From Paraspadella gotoi (lineage: Eukaryota; Animalia; Chaetognatha): a stretch of 64,000 nt of DNA. The stretch covers positions 16,775,245 through 16,839,244 of the forward strand of contig CM119264.1 of NCBI GenBank assembly GCA_051294375.1. Reading direction: 5' to 3'. How positions within the stretch are numbered: the first letter of the stretch is position 1; every line of letters begins with the position of its first letter. Of this stretch, positions 26,985 to 61,227 are shown piece by piece. The notes beneath the pieces were generated by a model. That model made no database searches and had not been told where the DNA came from. It was given only the letters and a program-made list of their open reading frames with translations. Position numbers and translations under genes: made by a program.

Positions 26985-28034
26985 AGGATCAAAAATGTGA
27001 TGTATCAAAAAGCTAATTGTGATAGCTAATCTTTTACAATATGGTTTAATTTTAATTAGTATAAAAAACGGACTTCAGACTGAGGGTAAACAAAGAATTG
27101 TTTTAATCTGTTTAATTTGTTTATTTATAAGTTAAAAATTAAAAACCAAGAACCAGTCTTGGACTTAAGCTTAAGTTAATTCCTTTATATTTTAGTGATC
27201 GAACATTCCCTAAGACGCATCCTCCTTTTCATCCTTCTATCCTTAACTAATTTACAATTAGTATTTATCAATTGGGTCCTCCCCTAATTTAAAAAAAAAT
27301 GTTTGGGAACAATATTTATATTGTTTATAATCAAAACGAGAACTAAACATTGGAACATGAACATATCCTCTGGATACTAACGAACGACGTTTTTTTAATA
27401 CGTTCTATTAAAAACCACCCCGTTTAAAACTCATTAGCTATATAAAAAATTAAGTAAGATAAATATATTTAAAAATAAAGAAACGTGATGAAAATTTTGA
27501 TTAAAAATGCTTACTTTCATGTTTACCCATGATAGTAATTCAATTTTAACAGTTTAGCTCTTATACGAGTATTTGCATCGTCAATGAATGAAAATGAATG
27601 GTTGTTGAATATAGAATTGTAGTGGTGATAAGCTGCAGATTCTGCAGTGCAGTGTGATAGTTAATTTATTTAACGCTTTTAATTTGAAGATGGATTAAAT
27701 AAAACTTAACTCTTAAATAATGCAAAATAATTCGTATTGGGTTACGAGTCAGAATTCATAATCAGTGTTGATTTGAGAAGTTACAAGTTTTAATTTCATT
27801 TATCTAAATCTGATGTTAAACTTGTAATAAAATATTTAGAGAAAGAATTTAATGGATACATCAGTTTATTTGCGTTACTTATTAAGTCGATTATTTCATT
27901 ATCATTGTGAAATGTTTATGTATATTTTCTACTTTTGACATTTTTTCGAGCAGCTAGCTAATTCGGCTGTAGTTTTCTTCTAGACACATTCTGTGAATGC
28001 TCTCGTCGGAAACGTGAACTATACCGAGCGTACA

Positions 28035-28718
28035 ATGCCCCTTTGGAAGCCAGTTCTCGCTAAGCCTCGTTCTCGGTCCCGCGCGAGCGATGAATCTGAC
28101 GGGACTCCAGAGTGTTCCATGATCAGAAGATCGGCATCTCCTCGCGGCTCGCCTTTGCCTGGGAAGCACCCTCTACAGCGCCGCTGGTCCATGTGGTACC
28201 ACAAGAACGACAAACAGAAGGACAAGGATTGGAAATCGAGCCTGCGTTTTATTTCTTCTTTCGATACGGTAGAGGACTTTTGGGCTCTTTATAACCACCT
28301 TAAGAGCGCCTCCGGCCTGCAGGTCGGCTGCGACTACTCCATGTTTAAAGAGGGTATTGAACCCATGTGGGAGGACTCGCATAATGTGATGGGAGGACGC
28401 TGGCTATTAAATTTGTCGAGACCCCAGCGCGTTTTCGAGTTGGATTCGTTCTGGCTTGAGACGCTTCTCTGCTTAATCGGCGAGGCGTTTGAACCTTTCT
28501 CTGATGACGTGTGCGGGGCTGTCGTCAACATCCGTCCTAAAGGCGACAAAATTTGTGTCTGGACTCGAGACGCCGACAAACAAGAAAGCAACATGAAGAT
28601 TGGAAAGACCCTTCGCCTTAGACTTGCCTTTCCTAGAAACATCGCCATTGGATTCCAAGCACACAAGGACACTATAACAAAATCTGGATCGACTACTCGT
28701 AATAAATACACCGTTTAA
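28035..28718 (+). CDS. EIF4E: Eukaryotic translation initiation factor 4E, class I, uninterrupted CDS
   Basis: KHPLQ..WSMWY, DW, FDTVEDFWALYNH, DYSMFKEGIEPMWED, GGRWL, WLETLLCLIGEAF, CGAVVNIRPKGDKI.VW and KSGSTT.NKY; conserved Trp residues present. An in-frame acceptor at 27983 could add an upstream exon. Confidence 0.95.
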   Translation: MPLWKPVLAKPRSRSRASDESDGTPECSMIRRSASPRGSPLPGKHPLQRRWSMWYHKNDKQKDKDWKSSLRFISSFDTVEDFWALYNHLKSASGLQVGCDYSMFKEGIEPMWEDSHNVMGGRWLLNLSRPQRVFELDSFWLETLLCLIGEAFEPFSDDVCGAVVNIRPKGDKICVWTRDADKQESNMKIGKTLRLRLAFPRNIAIGFQAHKDTITKSGSTTRNKYTV

Positions 28719-41300: not shown

Positions 41301-44300
41301 CAAATGAGGAAAATAAAACGGAAGTCAAAACGGAAATAAAACTTGAACCCGCTACCGGTTTTACGGATGCGACAATGATCGAATCGAAGGAACCCGAACA
41401 GGAAAAGCTGGAGCCCAAATCCGAAGAGTTGCCCTTAAATTTGGAGAACGCTTGGGTTCAAGACATCAAGGATGTAAAGTCGGAAAAAATCGATGCTTCT
41501 GCCATTCCGGAAAATTTCGTCGGTCCTTTGGAATCTGATTCTTTGCCTAAAATCTTGGAACCGGATCTGACGACTTTCGAATTGGTAGCTGACAGCATAG
41601 ACTCCCTCAAGGAACTTATTCGCCGACTAAAGAAAGATCCCGATTGGGAACCGAGAGTGGTCGAAGATGAGGGTGCGGAAGAAGGCGATAACCCTGAGAG
41701 TAACGAAAAAAATAAAGAGGACACTGCAAACGAAGAGGCGGATGAGGCGTCGAGCACCCGATCGAAGTCGTCTACCCCTGTTGGAATCGATACTTACGCA
41801 GATTCAGAGACGAAAGATTCAAAAACCTCCACAGAAGACGACGAAAGATCATCCTTCAAACACTCGAAGTCCAAGCAGCCGAAACGCGATTCGAGGAACG
41901 AGTCGGAACTCCTGGAAGAGCTGGAGGCATTGCTGACGGAGTTGCAGCCTTTCGAGCGAAAGTTGAACGACGCCGGGCGACGCATGCGCCTCAAGCTGCA
42001 AAAAGATGTGACAGAGTACAAGGAAGAGAACGATAACGACGCTTGGGAGAGCGACATTGACGAGGACGACGATATTCGTACCGCTTCGCGTCACACACAC
42101 GAGGAGAACAGTAACGATGCTTACACGCCGAGAATGGGCGAACCGGCGTATGATGTGGCATTCGGTGACGGGGACGGCGGCAGACGTTCGCTACGCGTAA
42201 ACCCGCGACCTTCCAAGAGAAAACTGGAGATGGACCGCGAAAACGAGCTGATTTTGCAAGGCGTCCAGGACGAATACACCGACCTCTGCCGTTCCGAAGA
42301 GTTTGACATCGTCGAGGTGTCGTCCAGGGGTCGAGTACGCAAAGTACGTCGACTCGGAATCGACGAAGCCGAGAGAATCACTGCGCGTTCCCGACCTTCA
42401 CGTGGCGGAAGTCGCAAGTCTACGCCATTTGACGATGACGACGATGATGAAGAGGAAGACGATGACCTTGACGACGTTGAAGACGTGAGCAATACCTCCT
42501 TTGCCGACGTCCGCGAGATGTCGGTGAGCGAACGTCGAAGTTTCAACGCTCGAAAGGCGGCCAAAAGCCGATGGGCTAACAGGGACGTCCTTGGCGCCAA
42601 CATCGTTTCCGGAGCCAAAAAGACGAAAAAGGATCCGGCTGAAGTTTCACGGGAGATTCTTGCCAATTCAAAACTCAGCGCCGCCATCACGGCTTTTAAA
42701 GAGACGGGAAAATTGCCGGATGGAATGGAGTTAGAAGGGCGCGGATCCGATGGCAGGCCTGTCATTCTGCGCGCCGAAACATTGGAAAAGATGAAACACC
42801 TCGACAACTATAAGATTCTCACAACTTTGTTGACACAAAACAACCCGGAACCAAAGACTTTCGTTGGGTATTCTCCGAAGTGTGTAATGGGGCTAGTTTT
42901 GGGCAGGGTATTTTTAAAAAGATTTAAAAATTTTAAACTTTTTTAAAAACATTTTTAGGGAAAAGCCCAAACCGGAGGTGATATACAAAAACGTTTCCGC
43001 GCCCTCGACGTTGCAGAGTATTCAAGTGTGTACGGCCTCGGTCGATGGAGGCGAGACCAATAAAATAAGCAAGGTATGCTAAAGCCTAACTTAGTTGAGT
43101 GAAAATTGAAATTGGTACAACCAATATAAAAATTATCCATTCAAAATAAGCTATCTTGCCCCTGTCAGAAATCTACTATGAAATTTAATTCAATAGGGGC
43201 GGGGGTTCAAAACTTTAGTCTTGAAGTCTACTTTCAGGTAAAAAAGATTTTTTTAAAAAAGTTCGATTTTAATACTTTATTGTGCTATCAAAATTACAAT
43301 ATTACTATATTATAATGATAAATTTTTTTTAATCTATCTTAACTTTTTTTTCTGGATTCTAATAAATAAGAAGTTAAATAAAAAGTTACATAAAAATATA
43401 ACTACAACTTTCAAAAATTTGTATGTTTTCTTAGTCAAAATTAATAAGTAATAAAATTATCAAAATATGATGATGATGATGATGATTATGATTATTAATA
43501 GTTTTTCGTATTTTCCTCCCACTTATGATGAAAATATCGAAAAAAGAATTATACTTTGTGATGATAACTTTTTGCAAGCTACCTGAATCTGATCTCAAAA
43601 AAAAAAAAATCTAAAAAAAGTTTTTAGCCTTTCCTATTTATAAATAAACAATAAAAAATTAATATATGGGATAAAATGTAATATTCAAATTTTTTTGTTT
43701 ATTCAAATTTTTTTAAAAATGTCTAAATTTTCGTTTGAGCAGGTGCTTAATTCAAATTTCTTAACCACCTTACTGAGTAAGGCTTCCCTTACCCCTGACT
43801 TTGGACAGGCTTTGGCGGTTTAAGGCCTCCATCGCTCTTACAAGATAATGACATAAAACGAGTTAGAATACCTAGAATCTTTGATTGTTTAATAGTTATT
43901 ATCAATTCCAAAAATAAAATGGATATCAAAAACGTCTAATTTTTCCAGGAAACCGCCATAGTGGTAAAATCCCCACACCATGAGCCGCAAATGATATTGC
44001 AGCAGCAACGTCCTGATCTTATGGCGACCAATGCCCCATCGCAGTCCATTATCATTAATGGGAGCGGGGAAAGCCAACTGAGCTCATCCCAGATTAGCGA
44101 TTTGCTCAGCAAAAAGTTCTCCAAGCAGGTGAGCGAGCTGAAGATATTACAGGAGAATATCAGTCCAGCTGTCTTGCTTATTCATAAATTAAATAAATAT
44201 GTATTTTTTTTCAGCCGGAAACATCACGGGTAGTTTCTCACTCACGTTCTCCTTTTGTCGTGGGCGTTCCAGGGAGCAACACCATCCAGGTAATTATTTA

Positions 44301-46503
44301 TTTCTAGTACTATTTATTTCCTATATATTAAATATATTTAATTGATAATAATAATAATTAATATTTAATATATTTAATTAGTCTGTTTCACCAAATGCAA
44401 AGGTTATTCAGCCTCAAGCCGGGCAACAACGCTTGCTCCTTTGTCCTAACGGAGGACAACGAGTTTTCGCCATCAACGGCCAGCAAGTTGTACAGCAAGT
44501 GGTTGTTCCGCAGCAGCTTTCCTCGACAACGGAACAACCACAACAGCAGCTTGTCCTTAGCCAACCTCCGCTGCTTAACGTCTCGGCCGGTTCAAAGATG
44601 GCGCCTAGTGGCGTTGTTCTGTTGCGCGCCTCCGCCCCTGTTGCGGAAACTTCTACGGTTTCAACCGTTTCCCAATCTCCCGGCGGCAAAATCGTTCAAA
44701 CAGCGGGCGGGAGCATTATCCTAAATCCTTCGCAGAATCCCCGAACTTCCAACCAGCCTTTAATAGCCTCGGTACGCCTCCCCAACGGCGATACGCAACA
44801 GATTCTCCTTAATACCCAACAAGTCGCTGCGCATCAGCAGCTGGCAAACCTGCAGGCCCAGCATGGCACAAAGCCTCGTCTCATTGCGCCAGCGTCTTCC
44901 GTCGAGAACGCAGTTTCTTCTGTAGCTTCTGTTCAACAACTCGGTTCCGCAAGGCAGCCTACGCCACAAATTGTTCGCTACGTCAACGCTCAAGGGTCCC
45001 AGCAAACGGTTCAATTGATACAAGTCCAGAATGCCTCGACGTCGATGGCCACGCCGGCCACACCCGTCAACAACAATGCCGTAAAAACGTCGACTCGCTG
45101 CGTGACTGTCAGAAACTTGTTGGAGAGTCGAGACAAGACTTTAGTGGGCACGGAAACGGAAAGGGTAACCGGGTTTCCAGATTCGGTTAGCCCGGTCCCC
45201 GACGTCGTCGCGACGCAGATCATGACCAACGCTAAACCAGCCGCGACCGCCTCAAATGCCGCCCTTCAAAGGGACGTTACGGCTCTCACGCAGGTTGGTC
45301 GCTTTCTTTTTTAAAAATTAAATTATTAAAATACATGTTAAAACGGAGATACACAATTTACAAGTCCTCTTATTTTAAAAAGAAATTATTTCTAAATGCT
45401 TATCCCGATTTACTCTTTAGAGCGTGACTGGCCCTATCCCAGCTGTTAAACCTGATGTGGCTTCCACTTCTTCCGTGACGCCACCGCGGTCTTCGCAGCC
45501 GGCGACGGTGGCGGTGGCACCGCCTCGTCTCGCGTCTCCCACCCAGAAAGTCACCTTTAAGATTGCTGTGCCTCCGAATCAATTACAGCAAATTCCTGGC
45601 AAGGGATTTGTCACCCCTCAAGGGGTCGTTCTCAATCCTGCTGCTCTTCAGCAGGCAATTGGCACTCAGGTGCTTCAGCAGGCGGCTATGACCGGTGAAC
45701 CCATCGTCCTCGACGAACGAAGACTCGCACGTATCCTTGCTGTGCAGAAAGAGCAGAGCGCGAGGGAAAACACGGCCGCCACGCCTACCCAGAACCCCCT
45801 CGCTACGCCGCCTAAGTTAAAACAGGAAAAAACAATACTTGTGAAGTCGCCGCCGAACCAGTTTCTCCAAACACTGCCACAATCCGCACAACCACCTCCA
45901 CAAATCGTCGCGGTAACGCCTGACCGAGTTCAATCCGCCTTTGTTCCCAACGCTGCTCGTACCATCCCTTTGCAACAACAACAGCTTTCGCCCCAAAAAC
46001 TCGCGTTTGCTCCCCAAGGGTTACCCCAGGCTATACGGGCGGCCAGTGTATCCGTCGCGGGGCAGACGCAAGGCCCCGTCGTGCAGCCCTCCGCCGTAAC
46101 TCTGTTGTCGCCAACAAAAGAACAGTTAGCCCGCGTGGCCACGGTTGGAGTTAACCAGCAACAGCAGCAGGGCAGAGTTGTCCTTTTGAACGTTGGCGGG
46201 CGATTAGTTCCTGTGCAAGCCGTCTCTTCCCAACAGATCGTAGTGCCGCAACAACAGCAGCCTCAATCTTCCCCGCAACAACACCAGTTGGTGATACCCT
46301 TAAAGGAAACCAACAATGCGACCTCACCTCTCAAGTACGTGCAGATCGCTCAGCAGCCACGGGCCGGTGTCGCTCCGCCAACTCGCTTCATCCAGCTTAC
46401 CCAGGACCAGCTGAAAAGCCTCACCCCGGCTCAGCTAGACCAGCTCAGGCAGTTAATTCCCGGCGGGTCTGTGGTCGAACAGGGCGGAAACATTACCCGG
46501 TAA
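35324..46503 (+). CDS. KIAA2026/BRD10-like bromodomain protein (about 15 exons; long acidic and Q/P-rich disordered C-terminus)
   Basis: Bromodomain NWPFLDPVD..DYRERVKRPIWL..DFRLMLENCYRYNGPDH.ISKRGQRLE. It is followed by KIAA2026-type blocks ELPQIGLFL.LCQ..LNLPE..ERC..P..IMTSLLS, NPLE..FHEL.FYQRVWILKALCD and LG.D..Y.HFPQFCGAD.RIY. Large exons 39763-~42870 and 45421-46503; stop at 46503. Confidence 0.88.
36960..37250 (-). mobile_element. ~300-bp Penelope-pLTR-like repeat carrying a hammerhead motif (36988-37027); paralogous to 22600-22920
   Basis: Minus strand acgCTGATGAaGGCTTGaaaaaCAAGTC-GAAAC-ATGTT. The adjacent (GA)n-rich body aligns with 22670-22885. Confidence 0.65.
38352..39277. mobile_element. 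HINE/DINE-1-like family B with central 18-bp tandem repeat; end fragments also at ~12930-12970 and ~49955-49995
   Basis: Terminal hairpin TTATT-ATCGTCGCA..TGCGACGAT, (CGT)n/GGC microsatellite, TGAAGCTGAAAATTT, CCTTTCTATTCTTTCTTT repeats, and subterminal TGCGACGATCCTTATGCTTTTAAGATTTT. Confidence 0.72.
43105..43860 (-). mobile_element. Short dispersed repeat (GTCCAAAGTCAGGGGCAAGATAGC...TTGGTTGTACCAA family) split by an AT-rich MITE
   Basis: The two halves (43105-43164 and 43792-43855) are contiguous in the copy at 29160-29290. Other copies lie at 36485-36525, 60558-60640 and 60825-60890. Confidence 0.7.
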
Positions 46504-47082
46504 TAAATGGATTTGATCTGACGGATAAATTCAGTTTTGTCTTCTTCTTCTGAGATATTGACGCGCCTCAACACTATTTTACACGAATAACTCTTAGTAT
46601 ATTTATTTTTTTACCACACGACGACGACGACTACCTTGACTAGCCTGTTTCGTATATGATCTTAATTATTCGGCGACAGAGAGGACGAGATTCAAAGTCT
46701 CATTCGTTCTTTCTATTAATAAAATAATCCACTGAATGAATAGATATTTATATATGTATATCGCCCTCTGATAGATTTCGTTGTAAATAATCATGATAAT
46801 CAATATTTTTAATAGTGCTGAAATTAAGTGTTCTATTCGAGCAATCTTTTTAAAAATACAGTTTTATTCGTATTGCATTTTCGTGTCATTTTTTATTTTT
46901 GTTAGCGATCCCATGTCATTGCGCATTTTTGACAATTATTTAAGAATAGGAAGAAAGAACAATTTAGGGTAACCTGAAATACAGCTGTACGTTTACTGAC
47001 GCTTATGAAAGGATAGTTAGGATTAACTTTAAGCGTTAGATAATATTCTCGCTTTACGTTATAAAAGATTTTTGCAAGAAAT

Positions 47083-50000
47083 ATGGGCGGTAAAAATTCA
47101 AAAGAAAAACCTAAGAAAAATGAGATTGGAAACGTGAAAGACAAAGTAACGAATTTGTCACCCAAGTAAGTTCCTTTTTTTTTATTTTTGGGTTTTTTTT
47201 TGCGGGTGGCAAACGTTACGTAATTTATGTTTTCCTCTAATTCAGAGATATTTTAGAGATTCAAGTTTCTTGGCAAGAAATGCATAAATCACCTCTTGTG
47301 GATCCCGACATCTTATTGTTTAAGCTGTTCTTCGAACAGTGCTACTCGGGGAGGTTATATATATATATTTTTTAAAAATTTGTTCATCCGCATATAAATT
47401 TCTGGGTGGGTTGTCTTTGTCCGCATTTACTGAGTTATTCGTTTTTTATTTTTGGTGACTAACCTAAAATATAAATAAGATTTTGAATTATTTAACCTCT
47501 CAGTACCTTATAAAAGAAGTTAAACTTTATTTCCACCTCTTAATTTATTTCGATAAATTTGAAAGAATAACTTTGTAAAAAAGAGAGAAGTACTCCAAAC
47601 TTATCGGTAATATTAATATCGAAAACATGAACTGGATCAACAATTGGGATCAGTCTGCTCCTAAACTTCATCAGAGCATGAAGGTAGTTGACTTCGGTTA
47701 TATTATATTCGATAGAATTGCTGAGCGCCCTAATCATGCTTATAGAAAACGGCGGATGCTTTAGAAGATTTTACAAGCTCGTTGAACTACTCCGATAGAG
47801 TGATCAACACAATGTATGAACAAGGGTGAGCATTGAGTAACTGTCATAATTCTAGGGCTTTTAGATATATAACTGGCATTATTGACGGTATCGAAAATAG
47901 ATAAATAGTAACAGTTCAGTTTAATCCCTTGCAAGCTATTTACATGTATTGGTACGATCTGTTCTGATCTGTGAGGATCACAAATTATAAGAATTATCGT
48001 GATTTACCATGATGGGGGAAAAAATTGTCGCGCTTTGGAAAAGTCGGTTAATTTCATTGACAAATATATTTTTTGGCCGTTAAATAGGTTTTAATATGTA
48101 ATATGACCTCCCTTGGACTGAATAAAAATATTATTTCTCAACAGCATAAAATTATTTATTGCATACAATTACTTCCAAAAGAGGTTGTCTCTAACTGTTT
48201 TCACCTCTTTTTGATCAAGAGGACTATTATTAATAGTTTATGACGAATCTAAATCTGCAAAAAAATCTTAACAAAAACTGTTTTGAAATTTTAACATTTA
48301 TTGGATTAGTACTATGTATGTATATGGCCTACTGCGTAAATTGTAAAATTTATTAGAAATTTTTTTATATATAAATGTTTATTAGTATAATGTTGTTTGT
48401 TCCTCACGTTTAGAATTGTAATTAAAATTAAATTTAGAAATTTTACTACGCCTTAATTAATACTATAAATTTATATCTCTGACATAATATTTTTTATCAG
48501 ATTTTGGGCAAAAAATTATCTTTGGCAAGCAGTGAAAAGGATTGATCCCCTATGAAGTAAACCAGGCATGAGTTGCTGCTGCATAATGTGATGATGCACT
48601 GTCTTTCCCTTCAACAAAATCTTTGATTTTTTAATTTTTTTTTAATATTTGTTTGATACTTTGTTCTGATAATACATCCAGAGGAAAATAAAAATGATAA
48701 CTTTACTCACAGAAAGGTTACACTGAGCCTTATAACTTTTATTGATGCTTTACAATATAAAAAAAATATTCTGGAGCATCTACAGCATCAATGTATTTTT
48801 AATATCATTCTTTTTTGGATATATGAATTAAGATTCATCCCTGAATCTATCTTAATGGAGATGATGCAATTGTGGACGCATTTGACATGAGACTGAGAAG
48901 AGGCAGGGATTTTTAAAGATAACGGTTTAACTAAAAAGTAATAAAAAAGAACCGGAAATTAATATAAATAAAAAGTGTAGATATAAAAAAGGAGGAAGTA
49001 TTTTTTTGGATAACTCATTTTCTTTTGCATGGAACTCTTGTATTTTTTGCCGTACATAAATAAGATACCGCTCATATGAATAACAAGAGGCTAAAGTTTC
49101 TTGATATCTAAATTGTATTTTTTTATCCTTACATTAAAATGCCAAAAAATAGCTGGAAAGTAACCGCGACAATTTTTTTCCCATCATGTTATCATCTTTT
49201 TAGCTGATTGCCACTTTGTTATCGTAGGCAGAATCGACATTGTTTGCTCAAACTTGTTTAATTATATGTAGCTCTTTCTCTCTTTTTCTCAGTCACTGCC
49301 TTTTCTGATACGTTCAAAAACAAGTTGAGATCTGCAGCGGCTGAAAGTTATGCCTCTCTCTCTCTCCTTTTTTAGCTCTATAACTATAACTCTATAACTA
49401 TCATATTTATTCATTAATTTATATAATTTATATCAATTAAATTTGTTCAATTTAATTAATTTGGTTAAATTTTATTTTTGCCGACCGCGGTTTTGGCGGT
49501 TTTTAATTTTTTTATTTTATTTTTAAAATAAAAAAAATAATTAATTACCCTAACCCTAAACCCTCTTAACCCTAACTACCCCCTAACTTTAAACCACCCT
49601 TAACCCTAACCCCTTCCTAACCCCGGTTGGCAAAAATAAAATTAACCCATTAATTCAATTCTTATATTTAAATTTAAATTGGTTCAATTTAATTAATTTA
49701 ATTCTTGCTCTCTCTCTCTCCTTTTTTTAGCTCTTTAACTTAAACATATTTATTCATTAAATTTCTTCAAATAATTATATCAATTAAATTCATTCAATTT
49801 AATTTATTCAATTCTTACTTTAAATTTAATTTTAATTCAATTTATTTCATACAATTCATTATATTTTATTTATTTGTTTTCTTTATTTATTTATTTTTTA
49901 TATATTAAGCCCAGTTTGTTATGTATAAAATTTAGTTCTCCTATATCAGTTTGTTTTTATGCGATTGCGACGATCCTTATACTTTAAGATTTTTTCTGAA

Positions 50001-50739
50001 AGAGAAAACATTGCAGGAATGGTTGCCAAAAAATTAAGATAATATAAACTCAGGCGAACCAAAAAAATTTGGAAAAAAAGGATAGTTCTGAAGCGAAAAG
50101 TACTCGAGCAATTCCATCCACATGAGGCAGTTCAAATCAGTTCAGCTCGGCCGAGCTGTGCGACTGGGATGAACAGTCAAAAGCTTTTTCTTTTACTTTC
50201 TTTCCCTTTTTTGTGGTGTTGCAACTTGCAACCATTAATTTAGGTCTGTCAATTCGTTAAATTTCACAGAAATGCTAAATTTTATCTTCAGCCTTTTGTA
50301 ACCGGTGTATGAAAATTTATAATAATTTTTAATGGGTTCTTCCTTTCTTACCTACTTCCATTTCTATAGAACCCCCTCGCTGGTGAAAGTAAGTAAAATT
50401 CATTACGTCATTGATATTATTCATTCAGCTTGAGCCACGCGCAATACGGAGTGACATCAGAAGAAATAAGAATCTTTACTCATTGTCTCGAACTTACCTT
50501 AAAAATGGAACTTGGTTTAAAGCTTACGAAGCAGGTGACAAAAAGTACTACCATAATAACCATTGCCTACTGCATTTCACTAAAAATAAAACCTTGTGCT
50601 GAACCTAATTTTTATTCAGTAGGGTCTACAAGCTTGGAATACGGCGCTAAAATTGCTAAATCGAGCGTTTTGCGAAGGGTTAGAAAAAGGAAACAGAAAA
50701 ACTATGAAAATTATCAAGCGACAAGCTGCTAAAAATTAA
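47083..50739 (+). CDS. Divergent single-domain globin with N-terminal myristoylation motif, 197 aa, 6 exons
   Basis: Exons 47083-47165, 47246-47353, 47584-47683, 47746-47825, 50429-50534 and 50623-50739 join in frame (594 nt). A helix LSPKDILEIQVSW, B helix ILLFKLFFE, F-G helices GLSHAQYGVT..IFTHCL..TL..ELG, H helix QAWNTAL. The exon 3 acceptor is weak. Confidence 0.82.
48008..49188. mobile_element. Non-autonomous DNA transposon with ~25-bp TIRs beginning CATGATGGG, in globin intron 4
   Basis: Left CATGATGGGGGAAAAAATTGTCGCG; right CGCGACAATTTTTTTCCCATCATG. No intact ORF; superfamily not determined. Confidence 0.75.
49463..49647. mobile_element. Small MITE containing degenerate CCCTAA (telomere-like) repeats; related copies at ~33085-33170, 33340-33445, 33530-33700, 36805-36870
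   Basis: TIRs AATTTTATTTTTGCCGACCGCGGTT / AACCCCGGTTGGCAAAAATAAAATT enclose CCCTAACCCTAAACCC-type arrays. Confidence 0.7.
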
Positions 50740-50897
50740 CAATTTATTAAGTGATAACTTGTTTTTGTTAGTATTTATAAGTCACAATACATGTTAAATT
50801 ATTAGTTATTCTTTTTAAATGACGATACCAGCGCACTGTGTAAAGTGTATACTGTGTGGAAAGACTTCAGAATACGAAAGATATTTATCGACGTAAT

Positions 50898-51500
50898 TAG
50901 GGGTAGCCGCACTCAATGGGGTGAGTCAAAAATTTAGAGCGAGTACATGCTCAAAACGAATATTTAGACATTTTTAAGAATACTTTCAATGGACAAAAAA
51001 TTTCTAATATGGCTCTATACCCTAGTAATTAATTTTTTAATATTTATTTATAAATAGGAAAGGTCAAAAATTTTTTTTAGAATTTTTTAATTTTAAGACC
51101 AGATTCAGATAGCTCATAAAAAGTTGTCTACACAAAGTAGATTCTTTTTTAAATATTTTTACGATAAGTGTGTCAAAAATAAGAAAACCGTAAAAAATCA
51201 TCATCATCATCATCTTTTAATGATTTTATCAGTTTTTTTATATTTTCACTTAGAAAACGTAAGAATTTTTAAAAGCAGTAATTATATTTCTTGTTTAACT
51301 TTTATGCTCTATCAGAATCCATCAAAAAATTTTAAGATTTAAAAAAAAAAATTTTTGCTCTATATAGTAATATAATATTTTTAATTAGGCTAGTACCCTC
51401 AGAAGAAAGCATATTTGAAAAAAAATATTTTAATACCATAATCTATGGTCATGATAGATTATTTTAACGCTGTATACATTAGCATTTAAATTTCATTTCT
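50898..51500. mobile_element. AT-rich MITE-like family starting TAGGGGTAGCC; copies at 60909-61227 + 62232-62643, 20140-20660 (rc) and 43250-43790 (rc)
   Basis: Long near-identical blocks (GGGGTGAGTCAAAAATTTAGAG..CATGCT.AAACGAA..; GACCAGATTCAGATAGCT; TATGCTCTATCAGAAT) at several loci. Confidence 0.75.
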
Positions 51501-54100
51501 ATGGCTAACGTAATTTAGCTGTAAGAAACTGAGGTGAGTAACTTGGCCAAATAATTTTATCGAAAACGGAGTTTTCGAGGTTCAAAAATTATTGACAATC
51601 ACGGGGAATAAAAGCAAAAATCACTGACTGAAAAATCTTAAACAGTGAATGCACAAATATAACGTAAATGTTGTTGTAGTTGTGATCGAAACAGCTGCGA
51701 CAAAACATTACTTTTTATTGGTATAAAATATTTTAAAAAACCTATTCTATTTCAAACGTTAAAGTGAAATGATAAAGCGTGCCAATCGATATTTTTAATA
51801 GTTTAATAAATCGCTAATATTTGACTGATTGAATGATGAAAAGTAATCCTAATATGAATATTCCGTCCGAGATTTCACTTTTTGATTGGTTTATCTTTCG
51901 GTTTGTCTTTAATTATCGGAAGATGGCGTGAGCGACTAGTAGCTTTTTGGCGTTTCGTATCTTCGAATGAGCAATATGATCAATAAAAAGCATCACATTT
52001 TGAATACTCATATTTACTTAAGTTGATGTATAAATAAAATTTTAAGCAAAAACAAGTTTGAGCAAACAATGTCGGATCTGCCTGAGAAAACTTTCAATGA
52101 ACCAAATTTTTTTAAAATGGCTAGAAGAACAAGTAATTAATTTTGTAATAATTATTTATAGATAGGAAATGTCCAAAAAAAATTTTGGATTTTTTTATTT
52201 GTAAAAACATATTCATATAGGCTATATATTATAGCTTATAAAAAAATTATCTTATACTTATTTGTTAATTTTAAATAATAAAACCTCCAAATTTTAAAAA
52301 GTTGCAATTATATTTTTTGTTTATTGAGCTCTATCAGAATTAAATAAAAAACTTAAAATATTTAAAAACAAATTTTGATATTATATAACAATATAATAAT
52401 TTTAATTAGCAAATTATTCATGGTTCAGAACATTTTTGCTAAAGAATATTTTAACACAATAATTAATACCAAACATGAATTTGTTTCATGCTGTTCCCAT
52501 TAAAATTGGAATTTGGTGGACTTCCGCTGTGCAGTACTAATAATATTTTGGTATTTATAAAAATATTTTATAAATCAAAACAATATTATTTTTATTTTGA
52601 TATATGATTTGATTAAAAATTTTTGATCAATACATAGGAAATATAATAAAATAAAATAGAATAAAAAATATTTATTAAAAAATATAAAAAAAAGATTTAA
52701 GATAATAAATATTTTAAAAGACAATTGTTATTTTGTTAAAGAGCAGGTGCAAGTGAAGATCTAGTGGGTGCATATAAAGTTTACTTTGAATGTTTCTTAA
52801 TGAGACTGACTTTTGTTTTTTCCTTTTAAATTCGCACTTTATATCCAGCCCAATCACATACTTTCCTACCTACAAACAAAATTCTATTCCAATCCATCCA
52901 TCCAAATTTCAATCACGAGTAATTGGAGTTGAATGCTAACGGGGAATGGGCGGACAGACATTTCTTTTTGCATAATTTATCTGAATTCTAGGTTCTGATA
53001 TGATCTAAATGATTTATTGACAAGATTTTTGGGTGGGACCGACGGACCGATAAAGGGAATTATAGAGTCGGAATCTTCGATACGCAGATCCGACTAAAAA
53101 TCATTATATATATTATAATTTGTTATTATTGAATATTAGTAATAATTACCAGAAGAAATATGGAATTTTGTTGCATAAAAATTTATACTATTTATAGTAA
53201 ATACTTTTAATTGGTCGAATTAATAATTGACAGTGATATTTTTTATTGCATCATATCTGTTTTTGTCGGATTTTTTATGAAGAGGTGGATTCTTTTCGAC
53301 TAAAATTTGTTGGTCTCATTACATTTTTTTAATTTTAACACTAAGTGTATTTGCAGGTTTTACCTTTATGATGAACGTTTTTTATGTTTATATCTTGAAT
53401 ATAAGGTTGTTTTTGATGGGGTTCCATAACAACGGATGCTGTACATATTTTTTTTATTAACATTTTTTTTTACATTCAAGTTGATTAAGCTTAAGCTTAC
53501 CAACGTAAATTTGGGAGTCAGAATTTGTAAAGCTTTGCATCACATAAGAACTAACGACTGATATACTTGGTCTCGTCATTCTACTTGATGCAGCGTTCTA
53601 AAATATTTTGTTCGATAAAGAATTGCATGTCTGTACTACAAAAGTGATTTTTCTGGTAGGACAATGGTACAATATTACTAAACCAATTTTAATGTAATAA
53701 TATATTTACCTGACTTACACGTATACTTTTCTCCACTTTAGAATATCTGAGAAATTAAAAAGCAACTACGGAGATATCCTTTGCAGTTCTAAGATTTTTT
53801 TAAGAAATACCAACCTTTTTTTAGGTAGCCACTTAAGGAAAATAGCAGGTCGAGTAAGTATTATGCATTCAATTTAGCTCTAGCTCTTAAAAATGATTTA
53901 GATTGTCTACAACTGTAGTAGGCTATGTACTAAGGCGAACAATGTGAAAACTAAGAGTTCTGTCAATGAAACTATTTAAATATTTTTAAATTTCAAAACT
54001 TTAATTTGCATTTAAAAACAATCCTGTTTTGATCGGATTTTGCTGACCTATCACATTGAGTCTCGTGGGTATACTTTACGATTTTATAGGTTCTGTTGAA

Positions 54101-54335
54101 GTCGCCCCGCCCCCCCCACATAAGCCCTCGTAACCTCGAGGTGCCAATACCGCGAAAAGTTATCAGAAAATAACGAAAAAAAACAAAAGAAACGAAGTTA
54201 AATGTAATGAAAACGGAGAGAAAACAAAAGACAAAAGTCCGTGCGCTCTATCCTCTCCGCCGCGGCAGCAGCCGCTCCCTGCCGCTGCAGGCCAGTCCGG
54301 CTAACCCGAGGCTGCTGCGCCGGGGATGCATCACT
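54101..54335. repeat. Left inverted terminal repeat of DIRS element
   Basis: Reverse complement of 59136-59370 with only a few mismatches or indels. Confidence 0.95.
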
Positions 54336-55010
54336 TTTTCTTTTCGCGCCATATCGTGCACGTGTTAAAATAGTTATCTTTTAACGATTTTTTCGTTTTT
54401 TTCCTCAAATTTCAACAAATTTCTACGTTTTAACGAATTTTCTTACCGAGTTATTATGCCTTCTCACGAAAATTCAAAATCTCGGTCGAATGACGGCGGT
54501 TCTGGGAAATCCGCTCACCGAGATAAGGGCGGAGGTCCCCATTGACCGACCAGGATCGAGAGGCGGTGAGGAAGGACTACCTCCCGCCGCCCCCCCCACC
54601 TCCAGTTTCGCCGCGACAGTCTCGCTTCCTGTCCTCCGGCGCCGGGGGGGCTCCCCGCCTGAATCTGCAGCCTCGCTGCCCGCGGTTCCGTCGGGAGGGA
54701 TTGACGAGCATATGAGAATCTTCATGGCTGATTTCCGTAAGGACTTTGAAGTCCGTCAGGATTTTGGTCAGTCCGCAAAGATTTAGACTCAGTCCGCCAG
54801 GACTTTCGTAAGGAGATTGGCGAGCTTCGTCGTGCAACTCGTCTCGACTTGGAGGATATTCGTGGGTGAGTTTTTTTGTGATTTTTTTCACCTCGGTGGG
54901 GAGTTAGTGTCGTCGTTTCGCTTAGCGCCCTCTCTCCCGTTATTTGTTTTCTTCTTTTTTCTCCGCTCCTTTTTGCTCTTTTGTCTCGACCCCTTCTCTC
55001 CTCTTGGGAC

Positions 55011-55097
55011 AGGGCTTATGTGGGGGGGGCGGGCGACTTCAACAGAATCTCTAATTCCTTTATGGAATATTGATTCTTTGTCGCCCCCCCCCACATA
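55011..55097. repeat. Internal complementary region (ICR) of DIRS element
   Basis: 55011-55047 is the reverse complement of the left end 54091-54128. 55053-55097 is the reverse complement of the right end ~59350-59395. Together they spell the circle junction. Confidence 0.92.
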
Positions 55098-58000
55098 CTC
55101 CCACCATCCTCCCCTTTATTTCACACCGCCCTTGTATGTGGGTGGAGAGTTTTCAGGCTCTCGTTTGAGAGATGGATTTTATTTTTACGGGAAAATTTTT
55201 TTAGTGTTTTCCTTTTGAGAGCAAAGGGGGGCGGCGGGGGGGGAGGGTTGTTTTGTTGGGATTATTTCTAATCCGTACGTTTAACCCTTTTTTTATTTAT
55301 GTGCGATTCTTTGTCGTCCCCGGCGTCGTCACTTCTCTCCATCCTCCTACGCTCGTTCCATCTCCTACTCATATGCTCGCCCAGAGGCCTTCCCCGTGCT
55401 GGCCATGCCTCTGCTCCTCGTTCCCGGGATGGCTCTCCTCCACGTCCGCGCCATTCTTTTCCGGATCCGGATGCTGCCCCTCCTCCGCAGAGGAGGGCGA
55501 GGCCTCCGACGATGACTCTGGCGACGAGAATCTCGGCGTCTGCGAGAAATTCGTAATCGCACGTAAAGCCGCGCCCAGCCTTCCCAATGGGTCCAGGACA
55601 CGTGGCGCCATTTTCGCGGCATCAAGCCCTCCGGCGCTTTTCGTCGCGGCTGGACGCTTTCTCCATCGCGAGCCGCACCTCACGCTGGGTGGACACCGAC
55701 ACCCCAGCAGCTTTCTTGCCTCCAATGCGACCATGCTTCGTGGCAGTTCAACGCCGCTCGTTTTTCCTCGTCGCTCAAAGCCCTTTATCGTCAGATGACC
55801 TCAGCGGCGCGGCGGGTCACGTGTTCTTGCTACCGTCGAAGAGCTCAATGCCCTTTGTGGAGGATATCAATCAAGGCGTCTTGCGAGGAGCTCAAGGCTC
55901 GCGCATGCGCCGCTCGCCTCCCCTCTTCGTGATGTTGCAGCTCTTCAGGCTGCATCCTTCAACGATGCTTTGCCAGGTTCGACGTGGAGTTTCGGCGGCT
56001 GCTTCGACGGACCTAAGGGCGTCTATCGCGGACGCCGCCCCTTCCGAATCCTTCTTTTTGGCAACCCCACGGAGTGCGTTTCGGCTGCTTTTCAGGCCTC
56101 CTTGGTGCGTCAGCAGGCCTCCCGTCCACGTTTTCAACAGGATCGTCGCCCGTCCTTCAAAGCCAAGTCTGCTTTCAAAGGAAAAAAGGGCGGCAAGAAG
56201 CCTTATCAGGCCAAGCGTTCGGGAAACGGGGAGGAGCGGGGCAACCGCTCCACCAAGTGACGGGCTCCTGCGGATCCGGGAGTCGTTGCCTCGTCCGACT
56301 CTTCCTTCCGTTTCGATTCGTCCAACATCGCCGCCTCAGACTCCATCTTCAGACTGGTTCGCCGCCCCCGCCCGTCGCTTCTTCCGCAGTTTCCGGTCGG
56401 GGCCGCCTCGTCCACTTCCTCCCCTTCTGGAAGCGTCTCGTCGGCGACAACTCCCCAATCCTCGAAAACGTCTCGGGATTTCGCATCGCCAATGCCGACA
56501 GGATTCCAGTTCGTCTTCCTCGCCCTTCGGACGAGACTCCTTCTTTCGGCGAGAGAGATGCGGAAGTGGAGGAGGAGATTCAGGCGGCTCTGGAGAAGGG
56601 CGCCATCGAAGAGGTCAACTCCTCTCCGGGGTTTTATTCGAAGGTCTTCCTCGTGCCGAAGAAAGACGGAGGATGGCGTCCCATCCTCAACCTCAAGCGC
56701 TTGAACGCCTCTTTCCTCTCCCCTCCCTATTTTCGGATGGAGGGCGTGGCGATGTGAGGAAGATGTTTCGCAAAGGGGATTGGGGCGCCTCCATCGGATT
56801 TGAAGGACCCTACCTCCATCTTCCTCTCCACAAGGACCATCGTCGTCTTTGCCGCTTCATTTGAAAGAAAGGTTTTCGGCCTCGCAACAGGTCCTTTCCT
56901 TTTTACAAAGCGACTCGTCCCCTTGTCCAGTGGCTCCGCGAAAGAGGAATACGATGCCTTTTTTATCTGGACGACATCCTCATTCTGGGAGCGTCGAGGG
57001 AGGAGTGCCTCTTAGCGACAGAGAAACCTTCCTCCTGCTTCGGGAGGCAGGCTTCATCATTCACCTGCAGAAATCGAACCTCTGCCCGTCCCAACGCTTC
57101 GAGTTCCTCGGGTTTTTCTGGGATGGTCTCAACCACTCCATTGTACTTCCGGAGAAGAAGAGAGAAACACTTCGATCCCTCTCGCTCTCTCTCCTCGACA
57201 TGCCCCGTCCAACAGCGAGCGTCCTTCAGCTTCTGGGACATGTCACAGCAGCCTCCATAGCGACCCCGCTCCTTCGTTGCAGAGCCACGAGAATTCAACA
57301 CGATCTCCATTGTGTAGTCGGACGGAGGCGGATCTCAATCGCCCATCGCCTCTCTCTGCTCTAGCTCGGGAGGAGCTCAGCTGGATTGCGGCGCTGCTTC
57401 CGGAGGTGCTGTGGCGCCAATAGCGGATCTTCTCCCGGAGTCTTGTTCCTTGACAGTAACGACAGATGCCTCACAGGAGGGCTGGGGCATCCTCCATCAG
57501 GGGACGCTTCTTCGGGGGATATGGAGGGGTGCCGATGTCCCTCGCCATATCAATGTGAAGGAATTCATGGTCCTGATGATATTCCTCCAGCGATTCTCCT
57601 CACTTCGTTTCATCGATTCATTGGAGGTCGGACAGCCAAGTCTCCCTCCTCTGCCTCCCAGGACCTGCAGTCGCTCACCGGCTCTCCACGAGATCGTCCG
57701 CTCATCACTGATCCTCGCTCACTCACTCGGCATTCGTCTTACCGGAAGTCACGTGACCTCGGAGGAGAATCTTGTGACCGACGCTGCTTCGAGGGGGAAG
57801 AAGGTAGCGGATTGGCACCTTCTCCACTGTTTTTCGCCAGATCTCCGACGCCTTCGCCCCGCAGAGATCGATCTCTTCGCGTCGGCGACTCGACACAGCT
57901 GCCTCGGTTCTTCGCTTGGATGACAGGCGCGGGAGCAGAGGGCGTCGACGCTCTCGCTCAGATCTGGGACTTCGATTCCTTTTTCCTCCCCCCCCTCCTC

Positions 58001-59135
58001 CCCAGCGTGATTCGGAAGCTGGAGGAGGCGAGAGGCGAGTTTCTCCTCATCACTCCCTTCTGGACGGCACAGAAATGGTTTCGAGCCTCCTGCTTCTTCG
58101 GATCAAGGAGGTGGCCGCCTCCCCATCCCGAGCAACCTCGTCATAGACCTCGCGACGGGCCTTCCCCCGCCCCAGGCGGACCACTTGAAGCTCGTCGTTT
58201 GGAAGATTTTCGGCGGTCGCACGGAATCGTCGAGGTCAACGACGCCACTTTCGGTGTCATCGCTGACAGCTGGAGGAGTTCCACTAGAAACCGTTACGCC
58301 AGAGCGTGGTTCCTTTTGTGACTTCCTTCAACGTCGAGAAGTACGAGGACCTGAGGCCTCTCTAAAAGACGTTTTGGAATACTTAGGCCACTTGGCTGAG
58401 CAGGGCTCTTCCTATAGCACAGTTAATTTGCACCGCTCGGCGATCTCGACGATTTTTCTCAACGGCGCTCCAGCGGGCGAGCACCCGCTAGTTCGTCGAC
58501 TTCTTAAGGGCGTCTTTGAACGACGCCCCCCTACACGTCGTCTTTTCCCCTCCTGGGATGCAGCGTCGATTCTTCGTATTTTCAGATGCGCGCCACGTCC
58601 ATTTTCGCCTTTCGAAATTCTTCGCCAATCTCTTTTCCTTTTTGCGATGGCTTCAGCTCGTCGCCCGTCGGAGATTGTCTCACTTCGTTGTGACCCCGCC
58701 TACTCGTTCTCGCGCGGGATCACGTTCGTTTAGTTCCATCCAAACTCTCCAAGACCGACCGGGTTGGACACCTTGGCCCGCCTTTCGTCTGGATTCCCTT
58801 CCGGGCTCCCCTCGCTGCCCTGTAGCAGCTCTACGAGCCTGGTTGTTCGTTCGCGACAAGATCTCTCCCGACCATCACGCGTCTTCTGTGCCAGTCACGT
58901 CCCTTCCGTCTATCGACGCAGCGTTTTGCAGCGATCCTCAAAGGCATTTTCCTTGAAGCGGACGTCGACGCTCCCTCGGGTTCAACGCGCTCCATGGCGG
59001 TTTCCGACGCCTTCGCCGCCGGTGTGGATCTTGGCGTCATTCTCCGAGCGGGAGACTGGTCTGGCGCCCAGACCTTCTTCCGTTTTTATTGTCGGGACGT
59101 TTCGTGGGGCGACGCCTTTTCTGGTTCTCGGGACG

Positions 59136-59395
59136 AGTGATGCATCCCCGGCGCAGCAGCCTCGGGTTGGCCGGACTGGCCCTGCAGCGGCAGGGAGCGG
59201 CTGCTGCCGCGGCGGAGAGGATAGAGCGCACGGACTTTTGTCTTTTGTTTTCTCTCCGTTTCATTACATTTAACTTCGTTTCTTTGTTTTTTTATCGTTA
59301 TTTTCTGATAACTTTTCGCGATATTGGCACCTCGAGGTTACGAGGGCTTATGTGGGGGGGGCGGGGCGACAAAGAACAATATTCCAAAAGGAATT
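59136..59395. repeat. Right inverted terminal repeat plus right extension (59371-59395) of DIRS element
   Basis: Reverse complement of the left ITR; the YR stop codon overlaps its inner edge. Confidence 0.95.
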
Positions 59396-60049
59396 TAATT
59401 TCATAGATGTCACTTTTTTATTTCTTTCATTTCTTCTCTGCCCTACCGTGATAAAACATATTATCAAGAATTATGATGTCTTTAGTGTCAAAAATAAAAG
59501 TCAAAATTCTTTACTTTTTTACACTCTGTAGTAGAAACTTATTTGATAAGACGTTTTATTCATTTTTTGCAGCTTTAACATAAAATTATCATAAACATAT
59601 TTTACTAAAGTTTCTTAGTTTTTTCCAGCGAATCCGAAAATTAAAATGAAAAAAATATTATTTTAAAATTGTATGATTTTATAAGAATATTATTATAAGG
59701 AAAATTTAATTTATGATACTGTTATGAATTTATTTTTAAAAAAAGGCTCATTTATTTTTCATTTCATATATAAAGGCAGTAAAAAAAGGTTCAATCGCTG
59801 AATCTTTTCATTACTCCACCCTACTGTGTAAGTTACTCAACATACAATCATCATAAAAATGATCCTAGAATACTTTTATGAAAATTAGAAGATTACTTGT
59901 TTTACCATAATAAAATAAACTTTAAATACACAGTAAAAAGTATATTTCGTAATTGCAAAAATTCTAAGAAGTTTAAAAGATGTTTTTATTTTGAACAGAT
60001 TTTTACAAAAAGTAATCTATTTAAGAGACAGTAATTATTGTTATGAGTT

Positions 60050-60215: not shown

Positions 60216-61227
60216 CCATACTATATTGTTATAAAAAATTATATTACGTACATATTTACAAATGAATAAATAAGTCATAAACATTCTTTTCACTTCTTCT
60301 TTTTTCATTTTGGTTAAACAACGTCTTAATTACTTTTGTTATTAAAAAGTTTAATTTTTAATTTAATTTAGTAGTATATCGAAGTGATATTTTCCTTAAG
60401 GTACAAGTCAGTAAGGAGAATATTTCTCCAATAGTACATCAACAAATAATCGGGTTGGTCGCTTATTTCAAATGGATCGACAAAATCCTTCTCCAAGCAA
60501 CATCGAGAGCATCTGAAGATTAAAACGTTTTTTTTCTTTTTTTGCTTTAATATTAAAAGCCTGTCCAAAGTCAGGGGCAAGATAGCTTATTTAATATTTA
60601 TTAATGAATGGATAATTTTTATATTGGTTGTACCAATTTGGAGAAGTTTCAACTATTTAATTTTAAAATCAAGAAAGCATTATCCATTATTTGGTCTAAT
60701 ATCATTTTTGTGAGAACGTTTCATTCGCTAATATATCTGATTTTATCTTTTTCTGTCCTGTTCCCAATAACTACTCTTTTTTTCATCCATTGATTCCGCA
60801 TTGGACCGACGGTGCTATCATATATCAGGGGCAAGATGGCTTGTTTATTAAATGAATGGATAATTTTTCTATTGATTGTACCCATTTCATGAAATTCGTG
60901 ACTTTGGATAGGGGTAGCCCCACTTAACGGGGTGAGTCAAAAATTTAGAGTGGGCACATGCTAAAACGAAAATTTATACATTTTTAAGTATACTTTCAAT
61001 GGACAAAAAATTTTTTATATGTCTCTATACCCAAATAATTTTTTAATATTTATTTATATATAGGAAAGGCAACAAAATCTTTTTAGAATTTTTTTATTTT
61101 AAGACCAGATTCAGATAGCTCATAAAAAGTTGACTGCACAAAATATAATTCTTTTTTAAATATTTTTATGATAAGCGAGTCAAAAATAAGAAAAACTATA
61201 AAAAATTATTATTATCATTATCTTTTG

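Follow-up and report, generated by a model that had tools for sequence, protein, structure and literature searches.

Retroelements copy themselves through RNA, so they should lose introns, and they must also split their RNA between translation and replication. Spliceosomal introns were reportedly described in YR retrotransposons by Goodwin and Poulter in 2004, and both introns and an unusual domain order are said to occur in the DIRS order, TcDirs1 included. For DIRS1-like elements, a 3' position of the ICR belongs to the descriptions in PMC3266345 and PMC7192593 and is not part of the definitions quoted in PMC6681497 and PMC9210276, as far as the portions of these papers covered here extend. 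An earlier note, made from the letters of the present DNA, had taken a position near the 3' end, after the recombinase, as the usual one, and published annotations agree: in 28 of 28 annotated elements (PMC3266345, Additional File 3), the recombinase motif comes before the ICR, which, as computed from the same file, lies at 86-95% of their length.

The role of the ICR has been studied in Dictyostelium DIRS-1, where, according to the part of PMC7192593 covered here, the rebuilding and joining of the ends that follow first-strand synthesis depend on it. DIRS-1 without an ICR makes cDNA and does not transpose, the block falling after cDNA synthesis. The same source indicates that the RT of DIRS-1 acts in trans, and that tagged DIRS-1 copies unspliced RNA when a marker intron is placed near the 5' end, this intron being partly retained (section 27). 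Here, we describe a DIRS1-like element in a 64,000-nucleotide stretch of Paraspadella gotoi DNA (the window), in which the ICR lies in the 5' part, within an intron that splits gag and is removed in an RNA contig.

Identification of the element

The element spans approximately 54090-59395 (~5.3 kb) and contains ITRs, gag, RT, and recombinase (Table 1). It is GC-rich, and the surrounding animal genome is AT-rich and intron-rich (eIF4E, WD40, DEP, and p24 genes lie in the window). Within this intron-rich region, the eIF4E reading frame (27984-28718, 244 codons, Pfam PF01652) is itself intron-less.

The inverted match between the ITRs covers 236 columns at 97%. These long repeats are inverted and not split direct repeats of the PAT-like/Ngaro kind; the sole direct match is a 28-nt segment common to the ICR and the right ITR. 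Motifs of pol were found at 56964 (YLDD), 57456 (VTTDAS), 57780 (DAASR), and 58049 (ITPFW). PF00078 matched the pol of L002, a relative described below, with an E-value of 1.5e-24 and the window piece with only 0.015, and PF00589 stayed below its curated cut-off on the relatives, P0166 excepted. The Gag of the window was identified by its likeness to relatives and has no Pfam family. Since the recombinase stop falls within the start of the right ITR, there is no room for a 3' ICR. By its ITRs, ICR, and coding features, the element is thus filed as a structural variant among DIRS1-like elements and not as a standard member, because its ICR is not in the usual 3' position.

Table 1. Features of the element, in coordinates of the window
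Feature	Position	Strand	Basis or remark
Left terminus and left ITR	54090..54335	+	54101-54335 97% complementary to 59136-59370; further RNA contig matches from 54091 onward
Coding part of gag exon 1 (138 codons, from ATG to phase-2 donor)	54456..54865	+	RNA contig 54348-54864
Splice donor GTGAGT	54866..54871	+	Contains TGA, read in frame as a stop when RNA is unspliced
GT-AG spliceosomal intron, 519 nt, whole ICR inside	54866..55384	+	Joint in 1 contig, run X1
T-rich spacer from donor to ICR	54866..55010	+	145 nt, 48% T
ICR, 87 nt, two-part	55011..55097	+	Complementarity to both ends, on the right including the extension
Branch-point-like TTCTAAT and pyrimidine tract	55266..55298	+	Sequence; candidate only
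Splice acceptor CAG	55382..55384	+	Used in RNA contig
gag exon 2	55385..56260	+	Frameshifted in window copy; likeness to L002 gag; tblastn 55968-56078
pol (RT, RNase H, methyltransferase-like region)	56362..58274	+	Frameshifted; 49% identity to L002 pol
Tyrosine recombinase domain	58311..59140	+	Likeness to relatives and motifs; stop inside start of right ITR
Right ITR and right extension	59136-59370 and 59371-59395	+	ITR pairing; extension complementary only to ICR

The ends of the element read GTT and ATT. The ICR halves do not abut the ends in the window cleanly, and a few letters at the ICR junction are present at neither end of this copy. One RNA contig carries 34 ICR-matching letters beside ITR sequence (joint from 55079 to 54101). 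If these letters are 55046-55079, the end is the ATT expected of a full right terminus, and the right end in the window (59389-59400) would then be about 7 letters shorter than the ICR predicts, through either an assembly slip or a crossover at an earlier ATT. Elsewhere, left-ITR sequence (54091-54238) occurs mid-way in a 5689-letter RNA contig (letters 3708-3862) with 5 substitutions and a 7-letter insertion, which would fit another copy or a fragment inside a longer transcript.

Position of the ICR

The left end (54084-54128) finds its complement in 55011-55054 at 93%, and the right end (59349-59395) in 55053-55097 at 88%. The corresponding local scores were 70 and 65, compared with maxima of 27 and 29 across 200 Markov-resampled interiors; together, complementarity and scores bear out the earlier reading of 55011-55097 as an ICR complementary to both ends. 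No second ICR was found between the ITRs, where the next-best interior scores were at most 26. The ICR begins at 17% of element length, before RT, and its position thus falls outside the range of all 28 published elements checked. Flanking the ICR inside the intron is a 17-nt inverted pair (54963-54979 and 55218-55234, 82%) with adjacent G and C runs, which may be due to chance.

RNA evidence for a spliceosomal intron

One RNA contig joins 54865 to 55385 on the sense strand of the element. The 519 nt that it skips have GT..AG ends, and a single letter is shared at the joint. This joint comes from 1 contig of 1 run in 1 study, and its short side measures 30 letters against the tool's bar of 31. 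The run in question, X1, is RNA, as it splices neighbouring host introns: among the other 14 X1 joints listed, 9 are GT-AG host introns on either strand (15 of 16 joints listed, 44200-55450). Five short matching pieces were recovered from run X2 and none from run X3. A template-switch artefact was considered for the joint and is unlikely, given the single shared letter and the consensus ends. The first letter of the long downstream contig is exactly 55384, and the 30 letters that make up the short side of the spliced contig are also the last ones of an unspliced contig (55245-55413); these contig ends match the pattern expected where two paths meet at an acceptor. With a GT donor, an AG acceptor, and removal in RNA, the latter seen in 1 contig, the segment is a U2-type intron. 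None of the X1 joints listed skips pol, bearing in mind that contigs show presence only. Contig depth was 2 and 5 over the intron versus 29-34 over the exons, values from which no splicing rate follows because contigs are no measure of RNA levels.

Between the ITRs, the + strand has a single GTRAGT, the GTGAGT at 54866. The earlier note had rightly placed the donor there, although it let the exon end in G, whereas the exon ends in GG, in phase 2. Its T-rich non-coding block is present as well (54866-55010), as are its TTCTAAT at 55266-55272 and the pyrimidine tract that follows. Its acceptor near 55300, with an AG presumed lost in this copy, did not hold: neither the window nor the unspliced RNA contig has an AG there. 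That contig agrees with the window at 55299-55301, with 0 other letters and its one gap lying elsewhere, and the missing AG is therefore not an assembly slip. The intron ends instead at 55384, on the CAG at 55382-55384 that had been named as an alternative and that the RNA contig uses; hence, the anticipated junction does leave from 54865 but lands at 55385 and not near 55301.

Since no AG occurs between 55246 and 55382 in the window, this CAG is the first one after TTCTAAT. The candidate branch point lies more than 110 nt before the acceptor, which lacks a strong T tract; 55266-55298 may represent a branch point at a distance or what is left of an earlier acceptor. The intervening 55301-55384 (57% G+C) looks more like coding sequence and may be a former exon.

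Coding capacity and state of the window copy

Relative to the window, the RNA contig over exon 1 has 6 extra letters, spread over 4 places. With X set at these 4 breaks, exon 1 reads through 138 codons with 0 stops and reaches the donor in phase 2. In unspliced RNA, this frame is closed by a stop within the donor, and the spliced join continues in a Pro/Arg/Ser-rich frame. From 55655 onward, likeness to the gag of L002 becomes apparent, with a frameshift-aware score of 106 versus 41-57 in 8 shuffles. The expectation of an in-frame gag after splicing is supported as far as the join by the open exon 1, its phase, and the continuing frame; exon 2 is frameshifted in the window. The gag stop lies in a donor-like GTGAC both in the window (56255-56263) and in L002 (1417-1425), and none of the X1 joints listed falls at this site. 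In L002, pol follows the gag stop directly, in the same frame.

Aligned to the pol of L002, the pol of the window shows 13 frameshifts, of which 10 are one base short, and 0 stops. The RNA contig over 55384-58802 (~3.4 kb) is 70 letters longer than the window and differs by 22 substitutions; for the long RNA contig over exon 2, 12 of 62 gaps were listed. In the host-gene RNA contigs shown, no differences from the window were observed. Given the lack of stops in pol, together with an RNA contig that is 70 letters longer and carries 22 substitutions, we infer that deletion errors of the assembly in a repeated element are a better fit to the frameshifts than decay.

The element is flanked by a minus-strand host gene (51614-53830 and beyond 59600) that is highly covered and has very short exons. 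Its exons extend up to ~53830, a candidate exon lies near 60380-60510, and the host-gene contig measures 3197 letters, mostly outside the stretch compared. The element probably lies antisense within an intron of this gene, so the unspliced RNA contigs may be host pre-mRNA.

Relatives of the element

A metagenome scan yielded 4 loci with context from 418 candidate stretches, and no usable locus was found among the viral contigs scanned or among genome contigs. One of these loci, L004, shows when reversed the following order: flank, left ITR, ATG, 96 codons, a phase-2 GTGAGT with an in-frame TGA, a T-rich spacer, and an ICR. Its spacer from donor to ICR measures 126 nt with 48% T, and its ICR half matches its own left end at 35 of 36 letters. 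DNA likeness between the window and L004 is confined to a short stretch of the ICR. The recombinase tail of L004 shares 31 of 33 residues with P0164, which of 7 tested relatives comes nearest to the window recombinase (57% identity). The exon-1 peptides of the window and L004 do not align (score 22), so the case for a homologous intron position is built on order and phase.

At 225-320, the ICR of the L004 contig gives way to the right terminus and the reversed end of the recombinase, and the acceptor is consequently not seen. This passage reflects either a crossover during assembly or a genuine inversion at the shared repeat. In the 5' leader of L004 (reversed 313-401), a donor-like GTAAGT and two acceptor-like TTTAG sites suggest, from sequence, a further intron before the gag ATG.

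L002 (46%) also carries a gag intron, with a donor at 132 and an acceptor at 502, and no ICR-like hairpin was found within this intron (132-502). L002 lacks both ends, however, and an intron truncated at the contig start may hold its ICR; an acceptor-like site is present at 76. The 5' part is absent from the remaining two loci, L001 and L003, and in L001 the 187 nt after the recombinase are unreadable as ICR or ITR. Overall, the layout was found in 2 of 2 elements with a readable left end (the window and L004), and L002 has a gag intron seemingly without an ICR. The gag search returned 5 proteins, none of which spans exon 1, and atlas searches returned unnamed clusters only. A distant relative, P0003 (1311 residues), has gag and the recombinase frame apparently fused in one reading frame.

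A possible division between message and genome

Since DIRS-1 without an ICR cannot complete transposition (PMC7192593), the spliced mRNA is likely a dead end. We consider it fairly likely that the spliced RNA serves as mRNA only and that the unspliced RNA is the sole template able to finish transposition; such a split between mRNA and genomic RNA would follow, we infer, from the published dependence of transposition on the ICR. The spliced RNA would yield full Gag and probably also Pol and recombinase. The cDNA of this RNA would lack the ICR and, judging by DIRS-1, its ends would be neither rebuilt nor joined. The unspliced RNA would be the genome and would code only for a 138-residue Gag fragment, and the proteins would act on it in trans. 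Loss of the intron would be self-eliminating, which would lock the intron in, and spliced messages would be kept from seeding defective copies.

Other explanations have to be weighed against this one. The window might hold a dead, rearranged copy with an inserted ICR block and splicing at cryptic sites, with no design at the level of the family. The heavy frameshifting of the copy would agree with this, as would an acceptor without a strong T tract, preceded by a coding-like segment (55301-55384, 57% G+C). We nevertheless regard this explanation as very improbable: 13 shifts in pol with 0 stops and an RNA contig 70 letters longer fit assembly deletions better, the element has neither a 3' ICR nor room for one, and the same layout recurs in L004. 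Less far-fetched, though in our view still unlikely, is that the intron is real and the placement of the ICR incidental, with a group that splices anyway, replication proteins that favour unspliced RNA, and an ICR that took free non-coding space. It draws on the gag intron of L002 without an ICR hairpin, on the acceptor-like site further upstream in L002, and on the extra donor-like site in the 5' leader of L004. Even so, every RNA spliced at the donor would lose the ICR. Moreover, two families that have no DNA likeness outside the ICR agree in donor phase, in-frame stop, spacer length, and T content, and L002, whose ends are missing, may have its ICR in the intron that was cut off.

It is also conceivable, but improbable, that spliced RNA still transposes by using the ICR of a sister cDNA in trans; the spliced contig might then stem from an intron-less copy, and there would be no strict lock. 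Contigs cannot tell which copy was transcribed, which leaves room for this explanation. Against it, ICR-less DIRS-1 gave no transposition despite active endogenous copies, according to the part of PMC7192593 covered here, and of the elements readable at both the 5' part and the left end, 2 of 2 (the window and L004) retain donor and ICR.

We therefore keep to the reading in which the spliced RNA is the message and the unspliced RNA the genome, at unequal strength for its parts. The anatomy proposed in the earlier note, an ICR within a spliceosomal intron that splits gag, is strengthened by the RNA contig, the open and in-phase exon 1, and the same order in L004. Its proposal that the ICR explains the persistence of the intron has lost ground, since the L002 intron without a visible ICR indicates that gag introns persist in this group without a visible ICR inside, and DIRS-1 copies unspliced marker-intron RNA. 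The lock is likely a consequence of the layout and not a proven cause of intron retention, and template borrowing in trans could soften it. With slightly more doubt than confidence, we propose an undescribed animal DIRS lineage in which the ICR moved into the first gag intron, splicing sorts a message from a nearly non-coding genome, proteins act in trans, the intron cannot be lost, and spliced messages give rise to no defective copies.

Comparison with known systems

The element shares much with DIRS1-like elements as described for Dictyostelium DIRS-1 and others (Piednoel et al. 2011, PMC3266345; Malicki et al. 2020, PMC7192593; both covered in part): ITRs, a right extension, a two-part 87-nt ICR, gag, RT-RH-MT motifs at the usual spacing (492 nt from YLDD to TTDAS), an overlapping recombinase frame, and a length of ~5.3 kb. 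Its GTT and ATT compare with the NTT ends of DIRS1-like elements, though with the imperfect abutment of the ICR halves noted above. It differs in that the ICR is 5' of RT, in a spliced intron splitting gag. No DIRS element with a 5' or intronic ICR was found in the literature searched, the scope of which did not extend to the TcDirs1 paper, Poulter and Butler 2015, Repbase, or Dfam and, for PMC9210276, excluded the supplements (Xenopus family structures, which may bear on ICR position). The word "intron" is absent from the main text of PMC3266345, PMC3783388, PMC9210276, PMC2996953, PMC6681497, and PMC2685390, and the covered parts of PMC5240408, PMC12477816, PMC5718144, PMC13465315, and PMC9940879 contain no 5' or intronic ICR. 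The novelty of the intronic-ICR layout is thus probable, a judgement set against other intron-bearing YR elements through partial literature only.

Separate RNA pools for translation and replication, with spliced RNA barred from replication, are also found in BARE1/copia/Ogre LTR elements, as far as the covered part of Chang et al. 2013 (PMC3735527) describes them. In BARE, the pools are set by promoter choice and the R region, and splicing makes Gag only, whereas here the replication signal itself would be excised. Ogre, as cited in the same paper, is said to splice between ORFs.

If the proposed reading is true, a single splice would solve both intron loss and the division of RNA pools. It predicts no young intron-less copies, the intron in all end-joined DNA, and junction-only RNA on polysomes. 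A 3' location is not obligatory for the ICR, a point that puts the DIRS replication model to the test, and annotation rules that seek a 3' ICR will miss or misclass such families.

Retroviruses offer another point of comparison. Their packaging signal lies downstream of the major splice donor, such that a cis replication signal is lost from spliced messages, and they translate Gag and Pol from unspliced RNA. In both cases, a cis signal needed for replication leaves with the spliced-out sequence. In the present element, however, the frame of the unspliced RNA ends with the stop at the donor, which would leave a nearly non-coding genome RNA, and the signal serves the repair of DNA ends and not packaging. 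If true, this would be the retroviral arrangement reversed.
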